Positions 11,577 through 55,169 are shown, counted from the first letter of the stretch. The stretch: 64,000 nt of DNA from Erysipelotrichaceae bacterium (GCA_017431825.1 JAFRKI010000002.1:155863-219862); one strand, 5' to 3'. A program made the numbers and translations. Notes: generated from the letters alone by a model not told the origin.

Positions 11577-11825
11577 AGTCGTTCTCCTTAATAAATAAAA
11601 AGGCGGCCCAAGGGCGCAGTGCGCGGTACCACCTTTCTTTTCTCTTGAACTCTTAACGCGAGTAACGTGCATGCTTACTGCTGTTTCAGCACACAGACTC
11701 CCAGACTACTTTTCATTGCTTCCTTGTGTCCTTCGCAGCATCCAGGACATCTCTTATTACCGTCGGCAATTACTTCTTTCTGTTCTCAGTCTTTATCATT
11801 ATAAAACTTATTCGCAAATAATCAA
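11577..11825 (-). promoter_or_regulatory. Promoter plus T-box leader (candidate Val specifier GUA)
   Basis: T-box AAGGTGGTACCGCG (core at 11622-11633), with a terminator ending CCGCCTTTTTATTT. The candidate specifier is GAAAAGTAG, with GTA at 11707-11709. Promoter: TTGATT (11820-11825), 16 nt, TATAAT (11798-11803). Confidence 0.85.
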
Positions 11826-41361: not shown

Positions 41362-42297
41362 TTATTTATTCTTGTTTCTGATGAATTCTTTGACCTTCTC
41401 GATGGTCGTGACACCGCCTCTAGGCCCTTCCTTGGTTATGGACATGGCAGCAGCACAGTTGGCGAATTCCAGTGCATACTCCAGGTCGTATCCCAGCATG
41501 AACGTGGCCATAAAGGTGGCATTCATGGTGTCTCCGGCACCGGTGCAGTCAACGATATCTACCTTATTGGCAGGCAGTGATATATCGACTCCATCTTTTG
41601 TCAGCAGCCGGCAGCCTTCGGCACCAAGCGTCAGCAGGAGGTTCTTGATATCCAGATCGAAGATCTCCCTGATGAACTCCTCTTCGGTCATGTCCTCGCC
41701 TTTTCTGAAGGTCTCGAAACCGAATTCGTTCATGCTGACGGTATGGGCATGTCTTACATAATCCCTCCAGTCCTTACAGAAGTAGTTGGATTCAACGTCA
41801 AAGAAGGTCTTTACACCGTTCTCATGCAGGAAATTCATGAAACCCTTGACGTCATCCAGTATTCCCACATAGCCGATGGTTCCGTATACGAATTCCGCAT
41901 TCCTGAAGAAGTCCAGCTGTTCATCACTTAAGTGATATCTCGGCGGTTCTTCATTTACACAGAAGATCGAACGATCTCCGTCAGGGAACTGGAAGATGAG
42001 ACACTTGGAATCCTTTACGGAATCCAGTCTGATGACCCGGGAGATATCGACGTTGCTCCTGATGAGGTCATCATAGAGAAAGTCTTCACTCGGATCGGTG
42101 CTTTTGACGTCAAAGACATAGGTCTTGATGCCATAACCTGCACAGACGCAGGCCGCATTGGCGATCATGCCACCGGCTACCGGTCCGATGTACTTGGCAT
42201 TGGCCTTTTCACCCTTGGCCATCCAGTTATCCATTCTGTAGTACTCGTCCACACAGGCAAAGCCCATGAAGACGGCATAGGGTTTATTTGTTTCCAT
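41362..42297 (-). CDS. PfkB-family carbohydrate/nucleoside kinase (last gene of the locus)
   Basis: 311 aa. PfkB signature DIVDCTGAGDTMNATF. Its start lies 1 nt after the stop of the preceding ARH gene. Confidence 0.75.
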   Translation of the reverse strand: METNKPYAVFMGFACVDEYYRMDNWMAKGEKANAKYIGPVAGGMIANAACVCAGYGIKTYVFDVKSTDPSEDFLYDDLIRSNVDISRVIRLDSVKDSKCLIFQFPDGDRSIFCVNEEPPRYHLSDEQLDFFRNAEFVYGTIGYVGILDDVKGFMNFLHENGVKTFFDVESNYFCKDWRDYVRHAHTVSMNEFGFETFRKGEDMTEEEFIREIFDLDIKNLLLTLGAEGCRLLTKDGVDISLPANKVDIVDCTGAGDTMNATFMATFMLGYDLEYALEFANCAAAMSITKEGPRGGVTTIEKVKEFIRNKNK

Positions 42298-42298
42298 T

Positions 42299-43375
42299 TT
42301 ACTTACCTGTTGTCAGTTCGCTTACCTTTCTGGCAACCTCACACAGATCGAAGCTGTTGGCCTTCTGTATCATGTCCAGATGATACTGGGCATTGGTGAT
42401 GCCGCTGAAACCCTGATAGGCACCGCACATCGATCCGCAGATGGCACCGACCGTATCGGTATCATCACCTGCGTTCATAGCCATGTGGATAGCCTTAAGG
42501 GTATCGCCTCCGGCAGCCACCATGAAACCGAATCCGGCCGGAATGGCTTCGGTGGCCCTGATGCCAAGACCTACCAGGTCATTCATTTCCGTGATGCATC
42601 TGTCAAAGTCATCACTGTACTTTAGACCGATGCCTACGGCCAGTTTCATGCGTTCCACAACGTCTGAACCGGTGACCGAAGGATAGATCTTTGAAGCTCT
42701 CAGATAGCCTTCCTTAGCACCATAGAAGCCCGCATCGAGCACCTTGTCCAGGGTCGAGTGTTCATCCATGGCCACAGCGGTCGCAGCAGCTACGGCTGCA
42801 CCAGCCGATAAGGCGATCCTGTTTGGATGCGTGATGCCCGCATAGACGATGAGATCATCTATGGCCTTATCCGGATCAAGCGGATTGAATACGCCGGCAA
42901 CGAAGGCCTTCATACCGGCGCCGTTGGTCGATGCCTTGTTCAGAGGATAACTGCCATGACTTCCGTCATACTCCACGTACGGCCTGTTATCTTCCAGGGC
43001 ATAATAACCCACCAGCTTGGCGATGGCGTCTCTGGTCGATGGTCCTGAATGCGGTATGTAGTATTCCGGTATCTTCGACCATTCCAGCAGGCCTCTTTTG
43101 GCTCCTTCTTCCGTGATCTTTCCGTCTTTCAGGAATTCTAATGCTGAAATATAGGAAACGGAAAGGTCATCAGTAGCGATACCCAGCCTTCTGGCAGGAG
43201 GATATTCCGCAACCAGCGTAGTCTCCAGAGGCACCGTGTAATCAAACGTATAGTCACCGTTGCCGATGTCTTTCTTTATGAGATATGTCGGCCTTGTCTC
43301 TGTAGGAGCACCCAGGGCATCGCCCATTCCGCAGCCCAGGAAGGCACCAAGAGTTCTGTCATAATTGATATTCAT
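42299..43375 (-). CDS. ADP-ribosylglycohydrolase-family protein, paralogue type 1
   Basis: 358 aa. N-terminal motif LGCGMGDALGAPTETRP and C-terminal metal motif NAGDDTDTVGAICGSMCGAY. Confidence 0.8.
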   Translation of the reverse strand: MNINYDRTLGAFLGCGMGDALGAPTETRPTYLIKKDIGNGDYTFDYTVPLETTLVAEYPPARRLGIATDDLSVSYISALEFLKDGKITEEGAKRGLLEWSKIPEYYIPHSGPSTRDAIAKLVGYYALEDNRPYVEYDGSHGSYPLNKASTNGAGMKAFVAGVFNPLDPDKAIDDLIVYAGITHPNRIALSAGAAVAAATAVAMDEHSTLDKVLDAGFYGAKEGYLRASKIYPSVTGSDVVERMKLAVGIGLKYSDDFDRCITEMNDLVGLGIRATEAIPAGFGFMVAAGGDTLKAIHMAMNAGDDTDTVGAICGSMCGAYQGFSGITNAQYHLDMIQKANSFDLCEVARKVSELTTGK

Positions 43376-43377
43376 TC

Positions 43378-44412
43378 TTAATTACCTCCCAGATACGTAT
43401 CGATGTCCTCAGCCATCTTTTCCAGATCGAAACCGTTCTCTCTGTTGATGAGATCGAGGTATTTGTCCTTAAGCACTCCAGGACCCTCGAGCGCACCAAC
43501 GATGAATCCGGCCATGCAGCCTACCGTATCGGTATCATCGCCCGCATTTACGGCCATCAGGATTGTCTTCCAGATGTCGCCTTTTACGGCAGTGATGATA
43601 CCGAAGGCAGCCGGAACGGCTTCATTAGCCGGTAATCCGGTCCCGATGATCTTCGAAATGCTTTCCATGGCTTCGTCGAAATCATCCTGATACTGCAGTC
43701 CCAGATCGATGGCATATTCCATACGTCTTTCTATCGTAGCACCGCAGGTCGGTACCGTAATGTCTACGCTTCTCTTATAGCCTTCCCTGGCTCCGTAGAA
43801 ACCGGCTTCGACCACTTCAAGCCAGGATACTCTTTCTTCCATGGCTTTGGCAGTCGCGGCAGCTATCGCACAGGCACCGGATAAAGCGATGGCATTGTCA
43901 TGAGTCACCTTACACATGACGATGGCTTCATCGATGGCCTTATCGACGTTACCGGCATTGAGTAAGCCGATGATGCCGACTTTCATGGCGGCACCGTTGC
44001 TGGCTTCCCTGTTTCTGGTTACCAGATTGTCCTGCTTGGTATGCGGCATCGGAATGCCTTTGATACGGTTATAGGCGGCACGGGAAGTCGGACCGGCATA
44101 ACGGGTATACTTGGAATCAGGTTCGTCAAACCAGCGGATCACCGCTCTTTTGGCTCCTTCTTCGCTTACCTTGCCGTCCTTGAGGAATTCTTCCGCACTG
44201 TAATAAGCGATGGAAAAATCATCGGTCACGACACCTTTGGTGGTACCGCCGTGCGGGAATGATCCCTCAGGCATGTCCACGATGTCCGTGCAGAGTCCGC
44301 CGAAGTATTTCTTAATAGTCTCTATCGAACCGTTTTCCGTACAGCAGCCCATCGCATCCGCAACGGAAGCTGCCAGTAAGGAACCCAGGATCTTGGATCG
44401 TCTGTCTGACAT
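43378..44412 (-). CDS. ADP-ribosylglycohydrolase-family protein, paralogue type 2
   Basis: 344 aa. LAASVADAMGCCTENGS and NAGDDTDTVGCMAGFIVGAL. Confidence 0.8.
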   Translation of the reverse strand: MSDRRSKILGSLLAASVADAMGCCTENGSIETIKKYFGGLCTDIVDMPEGSFPHGGTTKGVVTDDFSIAYYSAEEFLKDGKVSEEGAKRAVIRWFDEPDSKYTRYAGPTSRAAYNRIKGIPMPHTKQDNLVTRNREASNGAAMKVGIIGLLNAGNVDKAIDEAIVMCKVTHDNAIALSGACAIAAATAKAMEERVSWLEVVEAGFYGAREGYKRSVDITVPTCGATIERRMEYAIDLGLQYQDDFDEAMESISKIIGTGLPANEAVPAAFGIITAVKGDIWKTILMAVNAGDDTDTVGCMAGFIVGALEGPGVLKDKYLDLINRENGFDLEKMAEDIDTYLGGN

Positions 44413-44413
44413 C

Positions 44414-45454
44414 TTAAGCCTTTCCGTTTAAGATCTTATCTATATCCTTGGCCAGCTTTTCGAGTTCGATGTCGTTCTGCTTTTCAAGGAACTTGAGGTT
44501 CTTAGCCGGTAAGGATTCGACGCCGTTTAAGGCACCGAGGATGCCTCCGACCATGGTAGCTATCGTATCGGTATCATCACCGATGTTGACACCGCCATAG
44601 ATGCCCTGCATCGTATCGCCCTTGGCAGCTACCATCAGACCGAAGACGGCCGGAATGGCTTCGTTGGCTGCCAGGCTTGAGCCTACCAGTGAACCCAGCT
44701 TATCGATGGCTTCATCCATGTCTTTGGCAGTAAGACCGACCCAGATAGCCAGTTTCATTCTTTCTTCGACACTGGCACCGGCGTTCTCATGGTACTTGGC
44801 ACCGAGTCTTTCGCCTTCTCTGGCGCCGTAAAGACCGGCCTGTACGACTTTGAACAGGTCTGCGTCGTCATTCATGGCGCAGGCTGTAGCTGCTGCTACG
44901 GCACAGGATCCGGCCAGAGCGATCTGGTTAGGATGAGTGAGCGATGCGACCGTGATGGCGATCTTGATGGCCTTGTCGACATCGCCGCCGCTGAACAGCG
45001 CAACCGGAGCGATCTTCATGCCGGCGCCGTTGGATGACTGGGCATTCATGTTTACCGGCGTAAAGAGATTGGCCGGATCGAACTTGTTGACATCAGGAGC
45101 AGTGCCTTTCATCTTGGCAATGTTTGCTCTGGTGGTAGGACCCGCAAAACGGGAGAACCATTTGTCTACTTCCGACCATTCCAGTAAGGCTTTCTTGGCA
45201 ACGGCTTTGGTTACAACACCCTTATTGTCAGCGATCCTTCTGGCTGTCACATAGGCGACAGAGAAGTCATCGGTGATCTGACCGGCCTTGGAGCCTCGGG
45301 CATAGGTATCCTTAGGCGGCGCATAGAATTTCTTTACGTCACCGCCGAAAAATTCATGGATCTGCTTACGGGAACGGATCTCCGTTGCGGCACCCATGGC
45401 GTCGCCGGTAGCTCCGCCTACCAGACAGCCTAAAATCTTGTTATATGCAATCAT
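44414..45454 (-). CDS. ADP-ribosylglycohydrolase-family protein, paralogue type 3
   Basis: 346 aa. VGGATGDAMGAATEIRS and NIGDDTDTIATMVGGILGAL. Confidence 0.8.
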   Translation of the reverse strand: MIAYNKILGCLVGGATGDAMGAATEIRSRKQIHEFFGGDVKKFYAPPKDTYARGSKAGQITDDFSVAYVTARRIADNKGVVTKAVAKKALLEWSEVDKWFSRFAGPTTRANIAKMKGTAPDVNKFDPANLFTPVNMNAQSSNGAGMKIAPVALFSGGDVDKAIKIAITVASLTHPNQIALAGSCAVAAATACAMNDDADLFKVVQAGLYGAREGERLGAKYHENAGASVEERMKLAIWVGLTAKDMDEAIDKLGSLVGSSLAANEAIPAVFGLMVAAKGDTMQGIYGGVNIGDDTDTIATMVGGILGALNGVESLPAKNLKFLEKQNDIELEKLAKDIDKILNGKA

Positions 45455-45477
45455 GATGTTATTCTCCTTTTCGTATA

Positions 45478-46503
45478 TTAATCAGTAAACTTATCAACTG
45501 CGTCTATAAGACCCTTGATATCGAGATCATTGGCTTCAGACAGAAAAGACATGTAGTTGCTCGGAATGTCCTTAGCGCCGGAATAGGCACCGCACATGGC
45601 ACCGGTTATGGCCGCGATGGTATCGGTATCATTACCGCAGTTGACGCCCATGTAGATGGCATCCATAACCTTGCCTTTGGCAGCTACAAAGAAACCGAAG
45701 GCCGCAGGGATAGCTTCATTGGCGTTGAGCCCCGTACCTACCAGACCGGCCATCTCCTTGAGCAGTCCATCGAAATCATTCGCATAATTCACGCCGATGG
45801 TAACGGCCATCCTGATCCTGTCTTCGACACTGGCACCGGCTGACGGTTTGGTGAATTTCCAGGATCTTTCATAGCCTTCATGGGCACCGTAAAGCCCGGC
45901 ACTTACCACATCGTCAAGCGTGGAATTCTTCGTCATGGCCACAGCGGTAGCAGCAGCTACGGCAGCAGCGGCAGAAAGAGCGACTGGATTGTCGTGAGTG
46001 ACCTTGCACATGGTCATCGCATCTTCGATGGCCTTTTCCACATTGCCCATGTTGAAGACACCGGCTACCCAGGCTTTCATGCCGGCTCCGTTAGTGGCGG
46101 CAGAATTGTTGCAGCAGGCATAATCGTTCTTTGTATCCACTTCTTCACCCTTGATAAGAGCGATGGCTTTCTTGGAAGTAGGACCGGAATGAGCTATGTA
46201 GTAACGATCATATTTGGACCATTCGACCATGGCCTTTTCGGCAGCTTCCTTGGTGATTCCTCCGGCTTCAATGAATGCCTTGGAACTGAGATAGCTTACC
46301 GAGAAGTCATCGGTACACTGGCCGGCCGGCTGTCCGGCAGCCAAAGTGTCAGGACGAGGTTCAACGAACTTCTTTACATAGCGTCCGCCGCCTACGTCTT
46401 TCTTTATCAGATCGGTAGGACGAGTTTCTGTCGGTGCGCCCATGGCATCACCGATGGCACAACCTAAATACGCACCTTTGATGCGATCATACTTGGTAGT
46501 CAT
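45478..46503 (-). CDS. ADP-ribosylglycohydrolase-family protein, paralogue type 1'
   Basis: 341 aa. LGCAIGDAMGAPTETRP and NCGNDTDTIAAITGAMCGAY. Its start overlaps the upstream stop as TAATG. Confidence 0.8.
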   Translation of the reverse strand: MTTKYDRIKGAYLGCAIGDAMGAPTETRPTDLIKKDVGGGRYVKKFVEPRPDTLAAGQPAGQCTDDFSVSYLSSKAFIEAGGITKEAAEKAMVEWSKYDRYYIAHSGPTSKKAIALIKGEEVDTKNDYACCNNSAATNGAGMKAWVAGVFNMGNVEKAIEDAMTMCKVTHDNPVALSAAAAVAAATAVAMTKNSTLDDVVSAGLYGAHEGYERSWKFTKPSAGASVEDRIRMAVTIGVNYANDFDGLLKEMAGLVGTGLNANEAIPAAFGFFVAAKGKVMDAIYMGVNCGNDTDTIAAITGAMCGAYSGAKDIPSNYMSFLSEANDLDIKGLIDAVDKFTD

Positions 46504-47543
46504 TACTTGTCCTCCTTTTCCAGAAGCTTGCAGATCTTCGTGGCCGTCTTTCTCAGATCGAACTTGTTTTCCTTTTCGATCAGTTCCAGGAATCTGGCAG
46601 GAATGCGGTCATAACCGTTCAGGGCACCGACGATATATCCGGCCATGCAGGCAACAGTATCGGTATCATCGCCGGCATTGACAGCCATGACGATGGTGTC
46701 CATCGCATTGCCCTTGGTAGCGGCAATATAACCGAAGGCAGCCGGAACGGCTTCCGCAGCCGGCAGGCCGCCGCCGATCTCTCTTGAGAGGATGTCCATG
46801 GCTTCGTCGAATCTGCCCTGGTACCTCATGCCCAGATCAACTGCGTGCCTGATCCTCCTGACGATATCAGGACCGGCAACGGGACTTACACCTTCGATCT
46901 TCGAAGAACGCAGGAATCCCTGTTCAGCACCGTAGATACCGGCTTCGATAACGTCGAGATAGGAAACCCTGTCCTTGCAGGCTTCTGCTACGGCAGCAGC
47001 TATGGCGCAGGTACCGGCTAAAGCGATGGTATTGTCATGAGTAGGCTTGCACATTGTGATGGCATCATCGATGGCCTTATCGACGTTGCAGGCATCAAAG
47101 AGGCCTACACATCCTACCTTCATGGCACCGCCGTTAGAGGCTCTGCTGTTTACGCACAGTAGTCTGTCCTGCTTGGTAGGAGGAAGCTTCTGACCCTTCA
47201 TCCGGGCAATCGAACGCCTGGTGGTAGGTCCGGCACACTGCGAATAGTTAGGATCTTCAAACCACTTAAGGACAGCCTTTTCGGCACCCTTTTCCGTGAT
47301 CTTACCCTTGTCCTTTATTATCTGCAGGGCATGGTAATAGGAAACGGAGAAATCATCCGTGACCTGTCCTCTTCTGGACCAGTGGGCCCAGGTATCTTCA
47401 GGAGCCTGAATGATATCGGTCACCAGATGTCCCCATTTGTCTTTGATCATTCCGGTGGTACGTATCTCGGTCGAGGCACCCATGGCATCGCCGGTTGCGC
47501 CTCCTAAAAGACCGCCTAAGATCTTGTCATATATATTCCGCAT
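46503..47543 (-). CDS. ADP-ribosylglycohydrolase-family protein, paralogue type 2'
   Basis: The ORF track extends to 47618. I place the start at ATG 47541-47543 (MRNIYDKILGGLLGGATGDAMGASTEIRT), preceded by AAAGGA, which gives 346 aa. C-terminal motif NAGDDTDTVACMAGYIVGAL. Confidence 0.8.
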   Translation of the reverse strand: MRNIYDKILGGLLGGATGDAMGASTEIRTTGMIKDKWGHLVTDIIQAPEDTWAHWSRRGQVTDDFSVSYYHALQIIKDKGKITEKGAEKAVLKWFEDPNYSQCAGPTTRRSIARMKGQKLPPTKQDRLLCVNSRASNGGAMKVGCVGLFDACNVDKAIDDAITMCKPTHDNTIALAGTCAIAAAVAEACKDRVSYLDVIEAGIYGAEQGFLRSSKIEGVSPVAGPDIVRRIRHAVDLGMRYQGRFDEAMDILSREIGGGLPAAEAVPAAFGYIAATKGNAMDTIVMAVNAGDDTDTVACMAGYIVGALNGYDRIPARFLELIEKENKFDLRKTATKICKLLEKEDK

Positions 47544-47559
47544 ATTATATCCTTTCAGT

Positions 47560-48471
47560 TTAGATCTTGCCGAACTTCTTGAGGTTCTTGAAGTTGGTAA
47601 TGAACAGAATGATGACAACAGCCAGATACGGCAGCATGCCGGTAAACTGGGTCGGAACGCCCAGCGATGACCAGGTCAAAGCCAGAGCCTGGCAGTAACC
47701 GAAGATCAGACCGAACAGCATGCCTTTTAGAGGGTTGCCGTCAGCGACCATGGTGGATGCCATGACCATGAAGCCTCTACCACCCGACATGTTTTCGGTA
47801 AACATGGCCAGGGAATTAAGAGACAGGAAGGCACCGGCCAGTCCCATCGTAGCACCTGATACCAGCATGGCTATCCAGCGGTACTTGACGACTGAAACAC
47901 CGGCCGTTTCCGCAGCTTCCGGATTAAGACCTAAAGCACGGATACGGATACCGAACGTCGTCTTATACATGACGATATAAGCGATTATGGTAAGTATCGG
48001 AGCCAGCCATACCAGCAGCGTCTGGTTATTGAAGATGTCCTTGATGAAAGGAATGGAATTGATGACCGGTATATCGATGGTATCGTAGCTTACGGCACCG
48101 ACGTTGGTGGCTCCACGGGTATGGAAGATCATTACCAGCAGCATGGTGGTAAGGCCCCAGCCCGATAGATTGAAGCCGACACCGGTTATCAGTCCGTTGG
48201 CCCCCAGGTGGAAGGTAAACAGTCCGTATAGCGCAGCCAGAACGACGGCAGCGATGACACCGAACAGTGTACCGATCATATAGTTCTTAGTCAGATAGCT
48301 GCCCAGTAAAGCGAAGAAGGCGGCTATCAGCATAAAGCTTTCCAGGGCGATGTTCATGATTCCCGCTTTTCTGCAGAAACAGTAGCCGGCAATACCCAGA
48401 ATAAGAGGAGCCGACATACGGAACGTCGCATTCAAGGTTACAGTTGAAAACATAACACGTAAGAGTTCCAT
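47560..48471 (-). CDS. ABC permease of the BMP/nucleoside-type importer (NupQ/RnsD-like)
   Basis: 303 aa polytopic protein with typical family architecture. It is in an operon with a BMP-family binding protein. Confidence 0.75.
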   Translation of the reverse strand: MELLRVMFSTVTLNATFRMSAPLILGIAGYCFCRKAGIMNIALESFMLIAAFFALLGSYLTKNYMIGTLFGVIAAVVLAALYGLFTFHLGANGLITGVGFNLSGWGLTTMLLVMIFHTRGATNVGAVSYDTIDIPVINSIPFIKDIFNNQTLLVWLAPILTIIAYIVMYKTTFGIRIRALGLNPEAAETAGVSVVKYRWIAMLVSGATMGLAGAFLSLNSLAMFTENMSGGRGFMVMASTMVADGNPLKGMLFGLIFGYCQALALTWSSLGVPTQFTGMLPYLAVVIILFITNFKNLKKFGKI

Positions 48472-48475
48472 TCAA

Positions 48476-49570
48476 CTATTCCTCCTTCTTAATAGCTTCA
48501 CGAGCTTTTTTATCTTTATACTTGCGGTAAAGCATACCGTAATCGATGGAAATAAAGAGTACGAATAAAGCCTGCAGGAGGTTCATCGTATATCTGTTCA
48601 AAGTGGTGGCTCTTTCCATCTGCATGGCACCTGTCTTGAAGGCGGCCCAGATGAAGGATACCAGCAGTACGCCGACCGGAGAGTTGGCCGCAACACGGGT
48701 GATCATGACACCATCCCAGCCCAGGTTCGCCGAGAACTGGGCGATGAAACGGTGGTTGACGCCGATTACCTCGGTAGCTCCGCAGATACCGGCAATGAAT
48801 CCGGATACCAGGAAGATGATGATGAACATCTTATTGGAATCGACACCGCCGGCTCTTGAGAACGGCAGATTGGAACCGACCATCTTCATTTCGTATCCTA
48901 CCAGCGTATACTTATACAGCAGATAGACGATGAGGATGATCGCCAAGGCCAGGAAAAGACCGGTCGTAGCCGAAGTTCCTTTGATGATAGGCGTCAGTTC
49001 CGCCGTCTTATTGACGAAAGGCGTAACGATGGAAGTCTGTGAAGTAGCCGAGTTGCCGCCCATGAGTTTCAAGGTAATGTATTCGGTAGCCAGTACCGCT
49101 ACATAGTTCAAAAGCAGCGTCGTTATGACTTCATCGATCTTGAAATACAGTTTCAGCAGGGCCGGTATCAGCGCATACAGAAGACCCGCAAGACCGCCGG
49201 CAAAGATACAGGCAAGCTGATGAACGACCGGAGGCAGTTCGATCATATAGCCGACACAGGCAGCGGTCAGTGCACCGAAATAAAGCTGTCCTTCAAGACC
49301 CAGGTTGAAGACGCCGGATTTGAAGGCAACGGCTGCGGAAATGCCTACCAGCATACACGGTATCGCCCAGTGGATGGTATTGCCGATAGCCAGTTTGGAA
49401 CCGAAGGCTCCTTTGAACATTTCTCTAAGAGCGACGCCGGCATTGGCGTTGTTGGCAACGATCAGCAGATATCCGATCAGTAAGGTAGCGATCAGCGATA
49501 TGACGTATCTGGCAACATTGATCTTGGTGCTGTCAGCCAGAAAATGTTTGAGACTATTCAATGGTTTCAT
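48476..49570 (-). CDS. ABC permease of the BMP/nucleoside-type importer (NupP/RnsC-like)
   Basis: About 364 aa. The ORF-track start at 49585 is a GTG adjacent to AGGAGG. ATG 49568-49570 (MKPLNSLKHF) is more plausible, but the start remains ambiguous. Confidence 0.75.
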   Translation of the reverse strand: MKPLNSLKHFLADSTKINVARYVISLIATLLIGYLLIVANNANAGVALREMFKGAFGSKLAIGNTIHWAIPCMLVGISAAVAFKSGVFNLGLEGQLYFGALTAACVGYMIELPPVVHQLACIFAGGLAGLLYALIPALLKLYFKIDEVITTLLLNYVAVLATEYITLKLMGGNSATSQTSIVTPFVNKTAELTPIIKGTSATTGLFLALAIILIVYLLYKYTLVGYEMKMVGSNLPFSRAGGVDSNKMFIIIFLVSGFIAGICGATEVIGVNHRFIAQFSANLGWDGVMITRVAANSPVGVLLVSFIWAAFKTGAMQMERATTLNRYTMNLLQALFVLFISIDYGMLYRKYKDKKAREAIKKEE

Positions 49571-51110
49571 ATTTCTGTGCCACACCTCCTGTCATTAATA
49601 AGCCTAACTGGGATTCATCGAATTCGCCGTATTTGCCTCCGTCATAGAGTTCGCCGTTATACATGACCATGATACGGTCGGAGAGCTCCATGACTTCATT
49701 GAGTTCATGGCTCACCAGCAGTACGGCAGCGCCCTGGGAAGCGAATTCCAGCAGTTTGCCCCAGATGTATTCGATGGCACCGACGTCGATTCCTCGGGTC
49801 GGGTCTTCGATCAGCAGAAGCTTGTTGTCCTGGGAGAATTCCCTTCCGACTATCAGCTTCTGGATATTGCCGCCGGATAATGATCCGACATTGGAATTGA
49901 TGCTCTGGACCTTTACGGCAAAGTCATCGACGACTTTCTCCGTAAACTGGTTGGCATCCTTATGATCTACCAGCCATCTGGTCTTGAAACCGTGGGCTCT
50001 GTGATAACCCATGATGGTGTTTTCCCAGATGCTGGTCTTGACATCACATCCCATGACCATACGGTCCTGAGGAACGTAGCCGATATGGTCGGCACGGTTT
50101 TCCCTAGGGGTATTGCCCGTAATGTCTTTGCCCAGATATTCGATCTTACTGCCCTCGGCAGCCTTACTTAAGCCAAAGATGGTCTTGCTTAAGTACTGCT
50201 GTCCAGATCCGGCAACACCGGCGATACCCAGGATCTCACCTGCATGGATATCGAAACTTACATTCTTAAGTCTCTGGATGTTATCCTGGTCATAGACCGA
50301 AAGGTTCCTGACGCTTAATACCGGTTCGCCAGGTTCGCCCGGCTGCTTGTTGGCCTGAAGGATGACTTCCCTTCCGACCATCAGGTTAGCCAGTTTCTGC
50401 TGGTTCAGATCCTTAGGATCATATGTACCGACATATTTGCCTAAACGAAGTACGGTGATCTCATCACTTACTTCAAATACTTCCTGCAGTTTATGGGTAA
50501 TAAACAGGATAGTCTTGCCGGCTGCCTTCAGTACCCGCATGGCCTGGAACAGACCTTCGATACCCTGTGGAGTAAGAGTAGAAGTCGGTTCGTCCATGAT
50601 GATCAGATCGGCACCACGGTAAAGCACTTTGACAATTTCAATCTGCTGCAGCATGGCAACAGGCAGCTCGTTGATGACTTCATCCAGCGGAAGATTGAAA
50701 TTGTAGTCCTTGCAGATCTTTTCAACTTTTTCTCTGGACTTCTTGTAATCAACGAAAGCGCCTTTCGTTTCTTCAAAACCGACGATGATATTCTCAAATA
50801 CACTAAAGTTAGGTGCCAGCATGAATTCCTGGTAGATCATACCGATACCATGTCTGCAGGCATCCATCGGATTCCTGAATACGACCTTTTCCCCGTTGAG
50901 GATGATGTCGCCATAGTCAGGTTTTACCGTATCGGTAAGGATACCCATTAAGGTAGACTTGCCCGCACCGTTTTCACCGACTATTGCATGGATGGTATTA
51001 CGCTTAACTTTAAGTGAGATATGATCGTTGGCTTTTAAAGGGCCATAGAACTTGCAGATATCTCTTGTCTCAAGTACATATTCACTCTGATTCGAGATAT
51101 TTTCGCTCAT
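49554..51110 (-). CDS. Double-domain ABC ATPase of the BMP/nucleoside-type importer
   Basis: 518 aa. Two nucleotide-binding domains (GENGAGKST; LSGGNIQK). Confidence 0.8.
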   Translation of the reverse strand: MSENISNQSEYVLETRDICKFYGPLKANDHISLKVKRNTIHAIVGENGAGKSTLMGILTDTVKPDYGDIILNGEKVVFRNPMDACRHGIGMIYQEFMLAPNFSVFENIIVGFEETKGAFVDYKKSREKVEKICKDYNFNLPLDEVINELPVAMLQQIEIVKVLYRGADLIIMDEPTSTLTPQGIEGLFQAMRVLKAAGKTILFITHKLQEVFEVSDEITVLRLGKYVGTYDPKDLNQQKLANLMVGREVILQANKQPGEPGEPVLSVRNLSVYDQDNIQRLKNVSFDIHAGEILGIAGVAGSGQQYLSKTIFGLSKAAEGSKIEYLGKDITGNTPRENRADHIGYVPQDRMVMGCDVKTSIWENTIMGYHRAHGFKTRWLVDHKDANQFTEKVVDDFAVKVQSINSNVGSLSGGNIQKLIVGREFSQDNKLLLIEDPTRGIDVGAIEYIWGKLLEFASQGAAVLLVSHELNEVMELSDRIMVMYNGELYDGGKYGEFDESQLGLLMTGGVAQKYETIE

Positions 51111-51190: not shown

Positions 51191-52249
51191 TTACTGATAG
51201 TCAGATGGATCCCAACGATAGGAATCGTAACCTGCATATACATCAACAGCACCGGAAGCGATGTCAGCCATCAGCTGAGTGACCTTTTCCTGTACTTCTG
51301 CCGGTAAGAGATCGAAGTCTCTCTGATCATATACAGCAGCACCAGCAGCGATATCGTAGTAGCATACATGACCTTCCCAGGTACCGTCAGCAACTTCTCT
51401 GCAGCACTTGGTGATAGCGTCATTGATAGGCTTTAATGCAGACCAGAATACAGTTTCCTGACCGAAGTCGCCGCCCTGCCACATATCAACACCGATAGCC
51501 TTGACGCCTTCTTCCTTACATTCAGTCATAACGCCTAAACCGGAAGTATTGGCAGCCTGGTCGATGATGTCTACGCCGTATTCAGCGATCATAGCCTTGG
51601 CAGCTTCCTGACCCTTGTTGGCATCCTGAGCATCGCCGGTGTAACCGAAGATTACTTCAGTGCCGTTGTCAGCATACTTAACGCCGCCTTCGAAACCGTA
51701 TTTGAATCTGTCCTGAGAAACCTGATCAGTATGGCCTAACCAGCCGACTTTACCGGCTTCAGTCATCTGAGCTGCAACATAACCGGCAACGAATTCAGAC
51801 TCCCATGGGTCACAAATGATATTTGCGCAGTTGGTAGTCTTGTTGGCACCTAATACATAAGAGTCATTCAGGAAGATCTTAAGATCAGGATAGTTTTCAG
51901 CCAGTTCATCAGCTAACTGTAAAGCAACTTCACCGAGAGCATCGAATTCAGTTACGATTACATGGTAGCCTTCAGCAGCCATGGCACGGATCTGGTCAGC
52001 GAACTCGGAAGTTTCTTTGACTTCGAGGATCTTGACGTCCCAGCCTTCCTGTTCAAGGACCTTGACACCAGTTACACACATAGCTGTAAATGGAGCAGCC
52101 TCACCATACTGAGTGATGTAAACAACACTCTTAACAGGATCGACACCGGTAGTCGGTTCATCACCGCCCTGAGGCTCGCCGCCACCGGAGCATGCTACTA
52201 ATGCCAGACATACTAACACAGTAGCAAGAACTTTGAATAGTTTCTTCAT
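51191..52249 (-). CDS. BMP/PnrA (Med/TmpC) family ABC substrate-binding lipoprotein
   Basis: 352 aa. Lipobox LVACSGG. BMP-family features (..AGYVAAQMT.., ..FGYTGD..D..KG...A......GVD.I..AA...G.GV). Confidence 0.75.
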   Translation of the reverse strand: MKKLFKVLATVLVCLALVACSGGGEPQGGDEPTTGVDPVKSVVYITQYGEAAPFTAMCVTGVKVLEQEGWDVKILEVKETSEFADQIRAMAAEGYHVIVTEFDALGEVALQLADELAENYPDLKIFLNDSYVLGANKTTNCANIICDPWESEFVAGYVAAQMTEAGKVGWLGHTDQVSQDRFKYGFEGGVKYADNGTEVIFGYTGDAQDANKGQEAAKAMIAEYGVDIIDQAANTSGLGVMTECKEEGVKAIGVDMWQGGDFGQETVFWSALKPINDAITKCCREVADGTWEGHVCYYDIAAGAAVYDQRDFDLLPAEVQEKVTQLMADIASGAVDVYAGYDSYRWDPSDYQ

Positions 52250-52368
52250 TTTTTTCCTCCCTTGTAGTAAATTTAGAAACTTGAGCGTATATATGCATTT
52301 TAATGTGCATATGTAAACGCATTCATGTTCATTAAAAATATTATATGCTTACTTGGTCTATGTTTCAA

Positions 52369-53160
52369 TCACTTAGATAGCTGTTTTATGAACGTTTTCA
52401 CTCGTAAAAGATCGACAGGATTATTGACGTTACCGCCTTTTTTAAATGAACTTCCCACTATGGCACCGTCGATGATCTCAAAGAATTCCTTAGCGTTGTC
52501 CTTATTTACGCCGCTGCCCACGAATACAGGCATATTATGGGCCATTTTCTTAAAGTTAAGGGCATCTTCCACGCTTGGGCTCTTACCCGTCGTAATGCCC
52601 GTTAAAATGAGGGCATCGGCACCTCCTTCGATGCAGGATTCGATGGTGAAATCAAGCGGCTGATCGGTCAATGGGAAAGTGTGCTTGACGTTTACGTCAG
52701 CCAGTATCACGATATCCTTCGGGTACTGTGCTCTTATACGCATGAGCTTAGGTCCGGCCGCTTCCAGGATACCGTTAGGACCGCAGCGGTTTTCAGCCAG
52801 TACCTCGACTCTGATGAAGTCATAACCGCAGGCATAGGCCAGAGCCCACTCGGCTTCGATGTCATTGTACTGAAAATTGATGCCCATAGGAAGTTTAGTC
52901 AGTTTCCTTAATTTCGTGGCAATAACCGCAAAGGAAGTAACTGCGATCAGGGAATTGTTCTGAGCGTAAGGAACGTCTCCGAAATTCTCGATGATAACCG
53001 CATTGCAGCCACCTTCGATCAGCGCCTTCAGGTCCTTTTCCGCTGCTTTGTATACCTTGTCAAGATCGCCGCAGAAACCCACGGAACCCGGTAAAGGCAG
53101 CAGATGGACCATGCCTACCACGATCTTCTTATTTCCGAATAGCTTTTCGTATCTGTTCAT
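52369..53160 (-). CDS. BtpA/SgcQ-family TIM-barrel protein
   Basis: 263 aa. N-terminus IVVGMVHLLPLPGS...AVIIENFGDVPY is characteristic of the BtpA/SgcQ family. Confidence 0.75.
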   Translation of the reverse strand: MNRYEKLFGNKKIVVGMVHLLPLPGSVGFCGDLDKVYKAAEKDLKALIEGGCNAVIIENFGDVPYAQNNSLIAVTSFAVIATKLRKLTKLPMGINFQYNDIEAEWALAYACGYDFIRVEVLAENRCGPNGILEAAGPKLMRIRAQYPKDIVILADVNVKHTFPLTDQPLDFTIESCIEGGADALILTGITTGKSPSVEDALNFKKMAHNMPVFVGSGVNKDNAKEFFEIIDGAIVGSSFKKGGNVNNPVDLLRVKTFIKQLSK

Positions 53161-53161
53161 T

Positions 53162-54121
53162 TTATGCTTCCTTTAATTTCTTTACCAGTTCATTCCAGTA
53201 GAAGTCGATATTGGATGAGTTGATAAGACCGTATTCACAGATTAGACCGGTAATATCGGAAGCCGGCGTCACGTCAAAGAACTGATTGATGACCGTCAGG
53301 TTCTTATGGCTCTTGAAGTCTCCTTTGGAAATGATCTCGTTTTCCGTCCTTCTTTCCAGTTCGATCGGTACACCTTTCTTGGTGAGCGGGTTGTATTTAT
53401 ACAGTTCGGCTGCGACATAGAACGGTTTCTTGCACAGTTTGGCCAGTGCCGCCAGCATGGCGGTGCCCATCTTATTGGCGATTGAACCGTTAGAAGCCAG
53501 TGAATCGGCACCTACCAGAATGAAGTCAGCCTTCGGCATGAACTCGTAAGCTTCCGCATCAGTGATGTAGATGATTTTTTCATCCCATTCCTGCAGGTAG
53601 TGAACAGCTTTGCGGGATTCCCTTAACGGACGAGATTCCGTGCAGATGACAGTGAATTTCTTGCCCTGTTCGGCTGCCTTTATGAAGATGGCCATCAGGG
53701 TACTGGTATAACTGTGCATCATGATGGTGCTGCCGTCCTTTATCAGATTGGCTCCTACTTCAGCCATCTTGTCTATCGCCGCATATGAGTTATCGATGAT
53801 ATTGTCACAGACCTTAATGACCTTTTCCTTGATCACTTTGAGGTCTTCGTTCTTATTCTCTTCATAGACTTCCTCGATGATGTTGCAGGAATTATGGATG
53901 GTGCCCATGGTCGGCTTAAGGGTCAGCATCTGCTTTTTCAGGTCCTTATAGCGGGTTCGGAGCTCTCTTTTGGTGTTGAGCTTTTCCTTCTGCGTTGCGA
54001 GCTTTAAAGCCCAGGCAGCGGCACGGCCGAAAGGACTGCCGCCCTTGACGTTCATGTCTCTGATCTCCTGAACGACGTGATCTGCCGATCTGAAATCAAT
54101 GTCTTTTACTTTTTCTCTCAT
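53162..54121 (-). CDS. eIF-2B alpha/beta/delta-family sugar-phosphate isomerase homologue (ribose-1,5-bisphosphate-isomerase-like)
   Basis: 319 aa. IRDMNVKGGSPFGRAAAWAL, CTESRP, LVGADSLASNGSIANKMGT, FDVTP. The size and motif spacing match archaeal R15P isomerase more than MtnA. Confidence 0.7.
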   Translation of the reverse strand: MREKVKDIDFRSADHVVQEIRDMNVKGGSPFGRAAAWALKLATQKEKLNTKRELRTRYKDLKKQMLTLKPTMGTIHNSCNIIEEVYEENKNEDLKVIKEKVIKVCDNIIDNSYAAIDKMAEVGANLIKDGSTIMMHSYTSTLMAIFIKAAEQGKKFTVICTESRPLRESRKAVHYLQEWDEKIIYITDAEAYEFMPKADFILVGADSLASNGSIANKMGTAMLAALAKLCKKPFYVAAELYKYNPLTKKGVPIELERRTENEIISKGDFKSHKNLTVINQFFDVTPASDITGLICEYGLINSSNIDFYWNELVKKLKEA

Positions 54122-54182: not shown

Positions 54183-55169
54183 CTATATCCTTTCGAGATA
54201 TACTCTGTCTTCTTCCTGTTTCCAGTCAAGACCGTTTTCCTTTAAAAGCTCCTTCATGGCTTCAACGGTCGGACAATGGATGCCGGTGCCCGGTGTCATC
54301 GTCTTGACGGCTCCGGCCGCATTGGCGACGTTCATATAGGAATCGACGTCCCAGTCATGAAGATATCCGTACATGACCGCCGCAAAGAAGGAATCCCCGG
54401 CCCCCATCGTGTCGATCTTAGGGACCTTAAAGCCAGGATACCACTTCCCGTTTCTTTCTTTGTCTATCACGAAGCAGCCTCTGGCTCCGGCCTTTACGAT
54501 GACGATACCCTTCGTCTTTTCCGCCATCTTCCGGGCGGCTTCTTCCTCATCCTTTATTCCGGTATAGATCTCGGCTTCCTCATTGTTGAAGCAGACGATG
54601 TCGCTGAGTTCCATTATCTCTGCCATTATTTCAGGATCGATGTTGCCAACGACCGGTCCCGGATCAAAGAATAAGGACTTGCCCTGTTTATGGAATTCCC
54701 GGTATGCATACATGCAGTCCCGGATCATCGGCAGATCTTTATCCCCGTGCATGCTGTAACCGGACATATAGAAGGCCCTGCATTCCTTTATGAAACCGTC
54801 AAGCAGCTTCCGGTCAACATAATCGGCCGTAGGCAAAGTAGCCGCAAAGGTATGATGTCCGGCCTTGTCGATAAGACAGTTGGAGACCTGGGTTTCAAAA
54901 CCTTCCTTAACGATCAGACCTTTAGTCTCTATGCCCAGCTTCTCATAGGTCCTTTTCATCCATTCGCCGTAGATATCATCGCCGATCGGACAGTAAGGCA
55001 GGCATTTGCCTCCCAGTCTTTCATAGACCACGAAAACGTTTCCGGATCCTCCGGGCTGCCATTCGATGTTGCCGATACGGATATAGGTATCTCCTTCGAT
55101 AGGAAAAAGTCCGTCTATCCTTTGAACGACGTCTACGGGTAAACAGGTCATATCCAGCAGGTCATACAT
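54183..55169 (-). CDS. PfkB-family kinase (first gene of the locus)
   Basis: 328 aa. PfkB signature KIDTMGAGDSFFAAV and GG dipeptide QPGGSGNV. Confidence 0.75.
   Translation of the reverse strand: MYDLLDMTCLPVDVVQRIDGLFPIEGDTYIRIGNIEWQPGGSGNVFVVYERLGGKCLPYCPIGDDIYGEWMKRTYEKLGIETKGLIVKEGFETQVSNCLIDKAGHHTFAATLPTADYVDRKLLDGFIKECRAFYMSGYSMHGDKDLPMIRDCMYAYREFHKQGKSLFFDPGPVVGNIDPEIMAEIMELSDIVCFNNEEAEIYTGIKDEEEAARKMAEKTKGIVIVKAGARGCFVIDKERNGKWYPGFKVPKIDTMGAGDSFFAAVMYGYLHDWDVDSYMNVANAAGAVKTMTPGTGIHCPTVEAMKELLKENGLDWKQEEDRVYLERI

Follow-up and report, generated by a model that had tools for sequence, protein, structure and literature searches.

Why a bacterial operon should carry five consecutive genes for proteins of the ADP-ribosylglycohydrolase (ARH)/DraG fold, a fold with hardly any known role beyond erasing macromolecular ADP-ribosylation, is the question raised by a 64,000-nucleotide stretch of an Erysipelotrichaceae bacterium genome (GCA_017431825.1 JAFRKI010000002.1:155863-219862), referred to below as the window. 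The five genes occupy positions 42299-47543, counted from the first letter of the window, between the genes of a nucleoside-type importer and that of a PfkB-family kinase. The answer favoured here, to which a probability of about one half is assigned, is that the locus is a riboside-scavenging operon, that its ARH array arose from merged modules and that the paired gene products, referred to as type 2 and type 1, are most likely heteromeric.

The genes lie on the minus strand and are transcribed in the order E, D, C, B, A, each with an ATG start and a TAA stop, and the open reading frames (ORFs) are all present where a first-pass annotation of the sequence had placed them. E (46503-47543, 346 amino acids (aa), type 2) is the first ARH gene of the array; its ATG at 47543 is accompanied by a ribosome-binding site (RBS), and the 346-aa gene is called identically in the identical locus L058. 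It is followed by D (45478-46503, 341 aa, type 1), C (44414-45454, 346 aa, type 3), B (43378-44412, 344 aa, type 2') and A (42299-43375, 358 aa, type 1'), the last of which carries about 10 inserted residues in the region of residues 128-145. All five products exceed the gathering score of the ADP_ribosyl_GH family (PF03747; 26.2) with 135-182 bits and E-values of 6e-39 to 2.5e-53 (1.8e-47 for E, 3e-49 for D, 2.5e-53 for C, 5.2e-50 for B and 5.6e-39 for A), and each alignment covers the profile from position 1 to about 285 of 287. D is 72% identical to its orthologue in Anaerofilum hominis (L002) and 87% identical to that in a Solobacterium metagenome-assembled genome (MAG; L072). Antisense to D, a 195-aa ORF on the plus strand (45880-46467) would encode a Gly/Ser/His-rich product; it is without support and most likely spurious.

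At the E/D junction, TAATG, the start of D shares 1 nt with the stop of E, and a gap of 2 nt separates B from A. These two junctions had been read as translational coupling of each type 2-type 1 pair; the overlap and the gap are as described, but they do not distinguish the pairs, since C and B (1 nt) and A and the kinase gene (1 nt, or about 31 nt if the kinase uses a second ATG) are equally tightly spaced, and D and C are separated by 23 nt with an RBS. Tight packing is a property of the whole array, not of the 2-1 pairs alone.

Global pairwise identities are highest between A and D (50.7%) and between B and E (54.5%), with all remaining pairs at 41.8-46.5%, and any two copies have different residues at 45-58% of positions, which bears out the earlier impression that they diverge over a large share of their length. 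The motifs by which the types had been recognised by eye are seen in the alignment, namely YDR..GA.LGC..GDA.GAPTETRPT.LIKKD.G and CGAY.G in type 1, and KILG.LL, GLPA.EAVPAAFG and VNAGDDTDTV.CMAG.IVGAL in type 2. Within the window alone the two-type structure is real but modest, and it becomes clear only with homologues added. Only five positions separate type 1 from type 2 at a conservation of at least 80%, too few for differences between the pockets to be inferred without structures.

Scanning a single genome for each species yielded 57 loci, whose ORFs were labelled by BLASTP against the window proteins, and a bootstrapped neighbour-joining tree was built from 93 ARH proteins. A and D together with 13 other proteins form a type 1 clade (bootstrap 100), B and E together with 14 others form a type 2 clade (bootstrap 95), and the two clades are sisters (bootstrap 78), so that the division into two types seen by the first-pass annotation is recovered in the wider phylogeny. 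Its placement of type 3 nearer to type 2 is not: C shares 44-46% identity with each of the four other proteins and branches outside the combined clade, as sister to the third ARH gene of Anaerofilum hominis (L002_12033, bootstrap 100). A groups with D (bootstrap 88) and B with E (bootstrap 92), and the topologies of the two clades are near-congruent; because A and B occupy corresponding places in their clades, it was as a unit that the pair was duplicated or acquired.

The distribution of the two types across genomes agrees with this. All 13 external loci that carry either type carry both, with type 2 directly 5' of type 1 at a spacing of -4 to +18 nt, and a PfkB kinase gene follows the pair in every one of these loci whose contig reaches far enough. 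The 13 loci represent Oscillospiraceae, Erysipelotrichaceae and Diplocloster, and further pair loci were found in L065, L067 and L072. Reciprocal monophyly and fixed order hold for the 13 external loci and for the two pairs of the window. Type 2-type 1 is an ancient co-inherited two-gene unit, as the first-pass annotation had proposed in speaking of a two-gene module, and a functional coupling of its members is supported. In L065 (12163-13952), genes for an M20 peptidase and a nitroreductase-family protein lie between the type 2-type 1-kinase module and a third ARH gene, and may be a clue to what the aglycone is.

Strict co-occurrence in a fixed order would also be expected if the two proteins acted in consecutive steps without forming a complex, type 2 and type 1 cutting two glycosidic bonds of one substrate, for example a compound with two ribosyl groups or a ribosyl-riboside. 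Cleavage of O-glycosidic bonds between two riboses is within the reach of ARH3-type enzymes, and both members of the pair are intact in most genomes. This scheme is nevertheless improbable, since degenerate type 1 lineages, described below, would be incapable of the second hydrolysis, yet the gene is under selection in them, and since loci with a single ARH gene and a kinase gene are the commonest arrangement.

A more serious competitor, and a reasonable possibility, is that the window encodes five independent monomeric isozymes, each with its own riboside specificity, that the array does no more than widen the choice of substrates open to one importer/kinase system, and that the pair travels together only through the shared operon. 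Copy number can be read in this way: the commonest locus holds a single C-like ARH gene with PfkB, Hungatella hathewayi (L023), L026 and L039 have triple arrays, and similar loci of other genomes have 1, 2 or 3 copies, five being found only in the species of the window and one relative, which resembles modular gain and loss. Against independence, the two types are never found apart in the 13 loci, which span three bacterial families, and their order and spacing are fixed.

The heteromeric reading draws its main, indirect support from the way in which the active sites of the two types have evolved. All active-site residues examined are invariant in 16 of 16 type 2 proteins, which shows type 2 to be the invariant and presumptively catalytic member of the pair. 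Metal ligands have disappeared from type 1 on two independent occasions, once with D19N, T68S and D69Y (L004, L005 and L011) and once with E26A, D69E, D70G and D305N (L014, P0065 and P0078, the latter two being further relatives, 66-68% identical, with the same changes). Between L004 and L005 the ratio of non-synonymous to synonymous substitution rates (dN/dS) is 0.11 for the degenerate type 1 gene and 0.12 for its intact type 2 partner, and because the two values match, the degenerate genes are evidently not decaying. Vertebrate ARH2/ADPRHL1 offers a precedent, as an ARH paralogue that has lost catalysis but is retained in another capacity. For independent isozymes, purifying selection on type 1 proteins without metal ligands, beside an intact type 2 protein, is difficult to accommodate.

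A sister family of ARH pairs follows the same course. Where its members are encoded by separate, overlapping genes (L030, L032 and L050), the downstream member is degenerate. The same pair also occurs as one double-ARH protein of about 690 aa, represented by at least 14 protein clusters that are 53-100% identical (NCBI, ENA and Logan assemblies); in these proteins the N-terminal domain is intact and the C-terminal domain always carries D70A, D305E, D307A/S and T308A (L012:438-2585; P0001-P0015). An AlphaFold2 model of the fusion, built from a 15-sequence alignment, has a mean predicted local distance difference test (pLDDT) value of 88 and a predicted template modelling (pTM) score of 0.91; it shows a single compact unit, which points to a fixed packing of the two ARH domains. 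Conserved single polypeptides with one catalytic and one pseudo-catalytic ARH domain again speak against independence.

Together these cases show that ARH paralogues in importer-kinase loci repeatedly evolve partnerships between a catalytic and a non-catalytic member. A hetero-oligomer of type 2 and type 1 is favoured because type 1 can be degenerate and still be selected, and because the sister family contains both degenerate partners and fusions. Type 1 would then be the faster-evolving partner, most likely assembled with type 2 and serving in the recognition of substrates or in regulation.

ARH domains are also joined to regulatory proteins in some loci. Proteins of about 595 aa with a GntR helix-turn-helix, a UTRA domain and a C-terminal ARH domain are encoded in L016 (5723-7504), L025 (7872-9668) and L018 (8174-9952), each directly 5' of an ARH gene and a PfkB gene; the L018 protein has an intact ARH domain, whereas those of L016 and L025 are degenerate. 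It seems that a transcription factor has here co-opted the ARH fold as a putative ligand-sensing domain.

In the window itself, none of the five proteins shows signs of decay. The catalytic and metal-binding residues (D19, E26, T68-D69-D70 and D305-T306-D307-T308 in the numbering of A) are present in all five, and the residues of the two-metal centre of the fold (the Glu of G-x-x-x-E, T-D-D and D-x-D-T) are invariant among them, so that the ARH hallmark and metal motif are retained in every copy, as had been noted. We take E26, T68-D69-D70 and D305-T306-D307-T308 to correspond to the metal residues of ARH3 and DraG. The catalytic residues of the fold used for this matching are those listed in PMC8120803. 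The closest solved structure is that of the uncharacterised protein MJ1187 (PDB 1t5j, E-value 7e-34).

The same residues, together with membership of one Pfam family and partial, low-scoring matches to the models of DraG and Tri1, could be taken to mean that the array acts as DraG or Tri1 does in regulation or immunity, removing ADP-ribose from proteins or nucleic acids and so reversing an ADP-ribosyltransferase. Such a role is very unlikely. The five proteins score 35-70 bits against the DraG equivalog TIGR02662 (cutoff 337) and 28-49 bits against the Tri1 equivalog NF041672 (cutoff 490), there are no draT or nif genes at the locus, no ADP-ribosyltransferase, toxin or nitrogenase gene was found nearby, and no PADLOC defence model matches. 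DraG, ARH1, ARH3 and Tri1 share with the window proteins and MJ1187 the PF03747 fold and the same acidic metal-binding residues, but their substrates are ADP-ribosylated proteins, poly(ADP-ribose) or O-acetyl-ADP-ribose, and they are not found in importer/kinase operons (PMC8120803), whereas the association of ARH genes with importers and a sugar kinase is conserved across the 57 loci.

How the array came to hold two pairs and a solo gene is answered by relatives that carry its parts separately. In the metagenome relative L067 the order is PfkB2, GntR/UTRA, IF-2B, Bmp, ABC, E, D, kinase, C, with E, D and C at 79-80% identity to the window and the kinase at only 42%. In the Solobacterium sp. 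MAG GCA_017941735.1, locus L072 reads IF-2B, PsuG-like, LysR, Bmp, ABC, E, D, kinase, C (84-87% identity for E, D and C) and its operon terminates in a terminator-like hairpin, while another contig of the same MAG, L001, carries B, A and a second kinase, kinase', after 145 nt of non-coding DNA (82%, 76% and 68% identity to the window, respectively). In the relatives C lies 3' of the kinase, giving the order E-D-K-C. A second species (L069) has the merged order E, D, C, B, A, kinase', BtpA at 80-85% identity to the window.

The kinases identify which gene was retained. The window kinase, PfkB1, is 68-73% identical to the kinase that follows B-A (L001, L069) and 40-42% identical to the kinase that follows E-D (L067, L072), and in the Solobacterium MAG the two kinases are 41% identical to each other. 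These comparisons show the window array to be a merger of two diverged operons, ABC-E-D-kinase-C and B-A-kinase', in which the first kinase was lost. It did not arise by tandem duplication in place, because the modules lie on separate contigs of the Solobacterium MAG and their kinases are only 41% identical. The ends of L072 and L001 share no sequence overlap, and this, with the hairpin that ends L072, argues that the modules are separate transcription units, although a small residual chance persists that the two contigs are adjacent in that genome. The first-pass annotation had described duplication of a two-gene module: the pair as the unit stands, but duplication in place does not, given the separate E-D-K-C and B-A-K' operons of the relative.

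The part of the locus comprising ABC, E, D and C is 64-73% identical to a locus of the Clostridia species Anaerofilum hominis, and the G+C content is 0.52-0.53 across the array (42001-48000) compared with about 0.46-0.47 over most of the window; both observations are compatible with horizontal spread of the modules. The repetitive look of the region is the only point that would suggest an assembly artefact or recent, decaying duplicates. That explanation deserves next to no credence and is ruled out by independent contigs, a second species and intact ORFs: the exact C protein occurs on at least 20 independent metagenome contigs with the same gene order in the six shown, all five ARH genes being present wherever the contig is long enough, the second species has the array at 80-85% identity, and the copies, with ORFs and active sites all intact, differ from one another at 45-58% of residues. 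Of the earlier proposal of old duplication with diversification rather than an artefact, the age and the authenticity hold up, and the duplication in place is again the part that falls.

The genes around the array suggest what it may do. Upstream, in a group that is co-oriented with the array, are those of a nucleoside-type ATP-binding cassette (ABC) importer, all on the minus strand: a BMP/PnrA-family lipoprotein substrate-binding protein (51191-52249; PF02608, E-value 4e-35), an ABC ATPase with two ABC_tran domains (49554-51110; PF00005 twice in L058), permease 1 (48476-49585; BPD_transp_2, PF02653 in L058) and permease 2 (47560-48471; BPD_transp_2, PF02653 in L058), the last 70-87% identical to its counterparts in L002 and L072. 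The translated N-terminus of the BMP protein contains a lipobox-like LVAC motif, and its closest solved relatives are Lbp (7x0r) and Borrelia BmpA/BmpD. The last gene of the operon encodes PfkB1 (41362-42297, minus strand; PF00294, E-value 6.7e-33), with an ambiguous start at either ATG 42297 (311 aa) or, 30 nt further on, ATG 42267 (301 aa, the start chosen in L058). Its best NCBIfam match is ribokinase, far under the cutoff (84 against 300 bits), and a weak match to pseudouridine kinase (33 bits against a cutoff of 540) does not support identity with PsuK.

The BMP-ABC genes, the five ARH genes and PfkB1 are co-oriented, with gaps between ARH and kinase genes of at most 23 nt, and the importer-ARH-PfkB arrangement is also found in L002, L006-L008, L017, L067 and L072. 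Among the 57 loci adjacency of ARH and PfkB genes is near-universal, and BMP-ABC importers, GntR/UTRA regulators or IF-2B genes recur; no GntR/UTRA gene adjoins the locus in the window, and one is present at the orthologous locus L067.

Three further minus-strand genes lie upstream of the importer. PfkB2 (54183-55169; PF00294, E-value 2.6e-38) is a second PfkB-family kinase, 52% identical to the product of the first gene of L067. The IF-2B family protein (53162-54121; PF01008, E-value 1.4e-62) is closest to archaeal ribose-1,5-bisphosphate isomerase (PDB 5yfs, E-value 7e-47), with a weaker match to the methylthioribose-1-phosphate isomerase MtnA (E-value 1e-31), and it falls below the cutoff of the ribose-1,5-bisphosphate isomerase equivalog TIGR00511 (211.5 against 314.1 bits). 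Its gene also stands beside the orthologous locus in L067 and L072, and ARH genes have an IF-2B neighbour in L018, L042, L045, L048, L049 and L052 as well, including distant phyla. The BtpA/SgcQ-family TIM-barrel protein (52369-53160; PF03437, E-value 1.3e-74) has no relative that was found in the PDB, and a BtpA gene lies 3' of the array in L069.

Because a BMP-type importer, a PfkB kinase and a gene resembling that of ribose-1,5-bisphosphate isomerase adjoin the array, cleavage of ribosides in the cytoplasm is indicated. Ribosylated small molecules, perhaps unusual or modified ribosides, would be imported by the BMP-ABC system, and a cytoplasmic ARH enzyme would hydrolyse the bond at C1 of the ribose. 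PfkB1 would phosphorylate either the riboside before cleavage or the released ribose after it. The array might in this way supply about three specificities, those of the pair E/D, the pair B/A and C, with one transporter and one kinase serving all of them.

The kinase-first order has a working model in PsuK and PsuG of pseudouridine catabolism. PsuK is a PfkB kinase, and PsuG is a metal-dependent glycosidase that cuts a 5'-phosphorylated nucleoside to yield ribose-5-phosphate. The fold of PsuG differs from that of ARH. A PsuG-family gene (PF04227, pseudouridine-5'-phosphate glycosidases; L072:1105-2022), with a divergent LysR regulator, occupies in L072 the position that BtpA holds in the window. 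To our knowledge, all known ARH substrates carry a 5''-phosphate on the ribose. These three points, the phosphorylated substrates, the order of PsuK and PsuG and the PsuG-family gene of L072, favour phosphorylation before cleavage. Since the proximity of IF-2B and ARH genes extends to distant phyla, an intermediate of the ribose-1-phosphate type may occur, and the upstream trio of PfkB2, IF-2B and BtpA hints at a possible bacterial branch resembling a pentose-bisphosphate pathway or a dihydroxyacetone phosphate (DHAP) shunt. A more specific version of the proposal is tentative: the ARH branch related to MJ1187 and YegU would not act as (ADP-ribosyl)hydrolases on macromolecules but would be the glycosidases of a new riboside route of gut Firmicutes, consisting of importer, PfkB 5'-kinase and phosphoriboside hydrolase, with type 2 as the catalytic and type 1 as the specificity or pseudo-enzyme subunit of obligate hetero-oligomers, and with the array as two heteromers and a solo enzyme that serve different modified ribosides.

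Several observations weigh against a scavenging operon with heteromeric pairs. On the side of the pair, most of the roughly 60 type 1 proteins, including A and D, keep all catalytic residues, and with full active sites in all five window proteins the type 1 members may be no more than enzymes that act alone. A monomeric state is described for the ARH and DraG enzymes characterised to date (PMC8120803), which is what independent isozymes would lead one to expect, as is the finding that the top 120 relatives of D, all of 321-358 aa, include no type 2-type 1 fusion; the fusions belong to the sister pair family and not to type 2/type 1. On the side of function, the NCBIfam cutoffs do not make the PfkB kinases bona fide ribokinases, no substrate is known for the subfamily and yegTUV is still unassigned (PMC10819704). 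Hydrolysis to ribose or ribose-5-phosphate would not obviously need a ribose-1,5-bisphosphate isomerase, which leaves the PfkB2/IF-2B/BtpA trio unexplained. The operon structure, finally, is a presumption from gene spacing only.

The riboside-scavenging interpretation has counterparts in described systems. The nearest of these, the yegTUV operon of E. coli, shares its logic, combining a nucleoside-type importer, an ARH protein and a PfkB kinase: YegT resembles nucleoside:H+ symporters, YegU is an ARH protein and YegV a PfkB protein, under the GntR/HutC-type repressor YegW/GgaR, and the functions of the genes were still unknown in 2024 (PMC10819704). GntR/UTRA regulators in related loci (L067), some of them fused to an ARH domain (L016, L018, L025), are a further shared trait. 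In contrast to the window, with its BMP-ABC importer and five ARH genes, yegTUV has a major facilitator superfamily (MFS) transporter and one ARH gene, and it is without a type 1/type 2 pair and without IF-2B or BtpA neighbours. YegU is 25-28% identical to the five ARH proteins and YegV 20-23% identical to the window kinases; at that level YegU and the window proteins share a superfamily and not an orthologous group. A Citrobacter ARH gene (L053) was considered as yegU and rejected, as it has no DNA match in E. coli genomes.

The ribose-utilisation systems (RUS) of Bacteroidetes provide the other comparison. They combine ribose import and one or two ribokinases with variable "ribose-liberating" enzymes, among which ADP-ribosylglycohydrolases are explicitly included (Glowacki et al., bioRxiv 10.1101/574913), so that an ARH-family enzyme appears there too as a nutrient-scavenging hydrolase. 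The RUS are, however, SusC/D-type polysaccharide utilisation loci (PULs) of Gram-negative Bacteroidetes, whereas the window holds an ABC operon of a Firmicute; their description contains no ARH arrays or pairs, and their ARH enzymes are likewise without biochemical characterisation. A 2021 review of bacterial ADP-ribosylation names no characterised bacterial proteins of the fold besides DraG and Tri1 (PMC8120803). In a literature search outside which many subscription papers lay, no ARH paralogue arrays, type 1/type 2 pairs or double-ARH fusions were found described, nothing was found on the biochemistry of ARH-PfkB loci, and nothing relevant linked BtpA with ribose-1,5-bisphosphate isomerase. 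The view that such arrays are undescribed is upheld to that extent, although yegTUV as a transporter-ARH-PfkB operon and the ARH genes of RUS had already been noted.

A large, conserved ARH branch in importer-kinase operons points to a putative second role of the fold, in the catabolism of small-molecule ribosides. Were this correct, gut and rumen Firmicutes would have an added route of nucleoside or ribose salvage, and caution would be due in annotating such genes as DraG-like regulators. We know of no hetero-oligomeric organisation in the ARH family, and the pair, if confirmed as a complex, would be the first heteromeric ARH enzyme. If the proteins are ordinary independent isozymes, the locus would be a modest example of merged operons and an expanded set of paralogues. 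Experimental handles are provided by five diverged enzymes on one transporter, the co-inherited pair, the pseudo-enzyme lineages and the natural fusions.

The transcription unit of ABC, ARH and kinase genes probably starts at 52340-52368 (minus strand), where an 11/12 match to a sigma-70-like promoter is the best in the 119-nt gap 5' of the BMP gene; the promoter and terminator scan was by consensus matching only, and its total matches were not above shuffled expectation. At its 3' end the array operon is convergent with plsY, beyond which lie the housekeeping genes parE and parC. Rfam models found no riboswitch near the operon. Elsewhere in the window, at 11607-11796 on the minus strand and unrelated to the array, there is a T-box leader (RF00230; 101 bits, E-value 4e-21).

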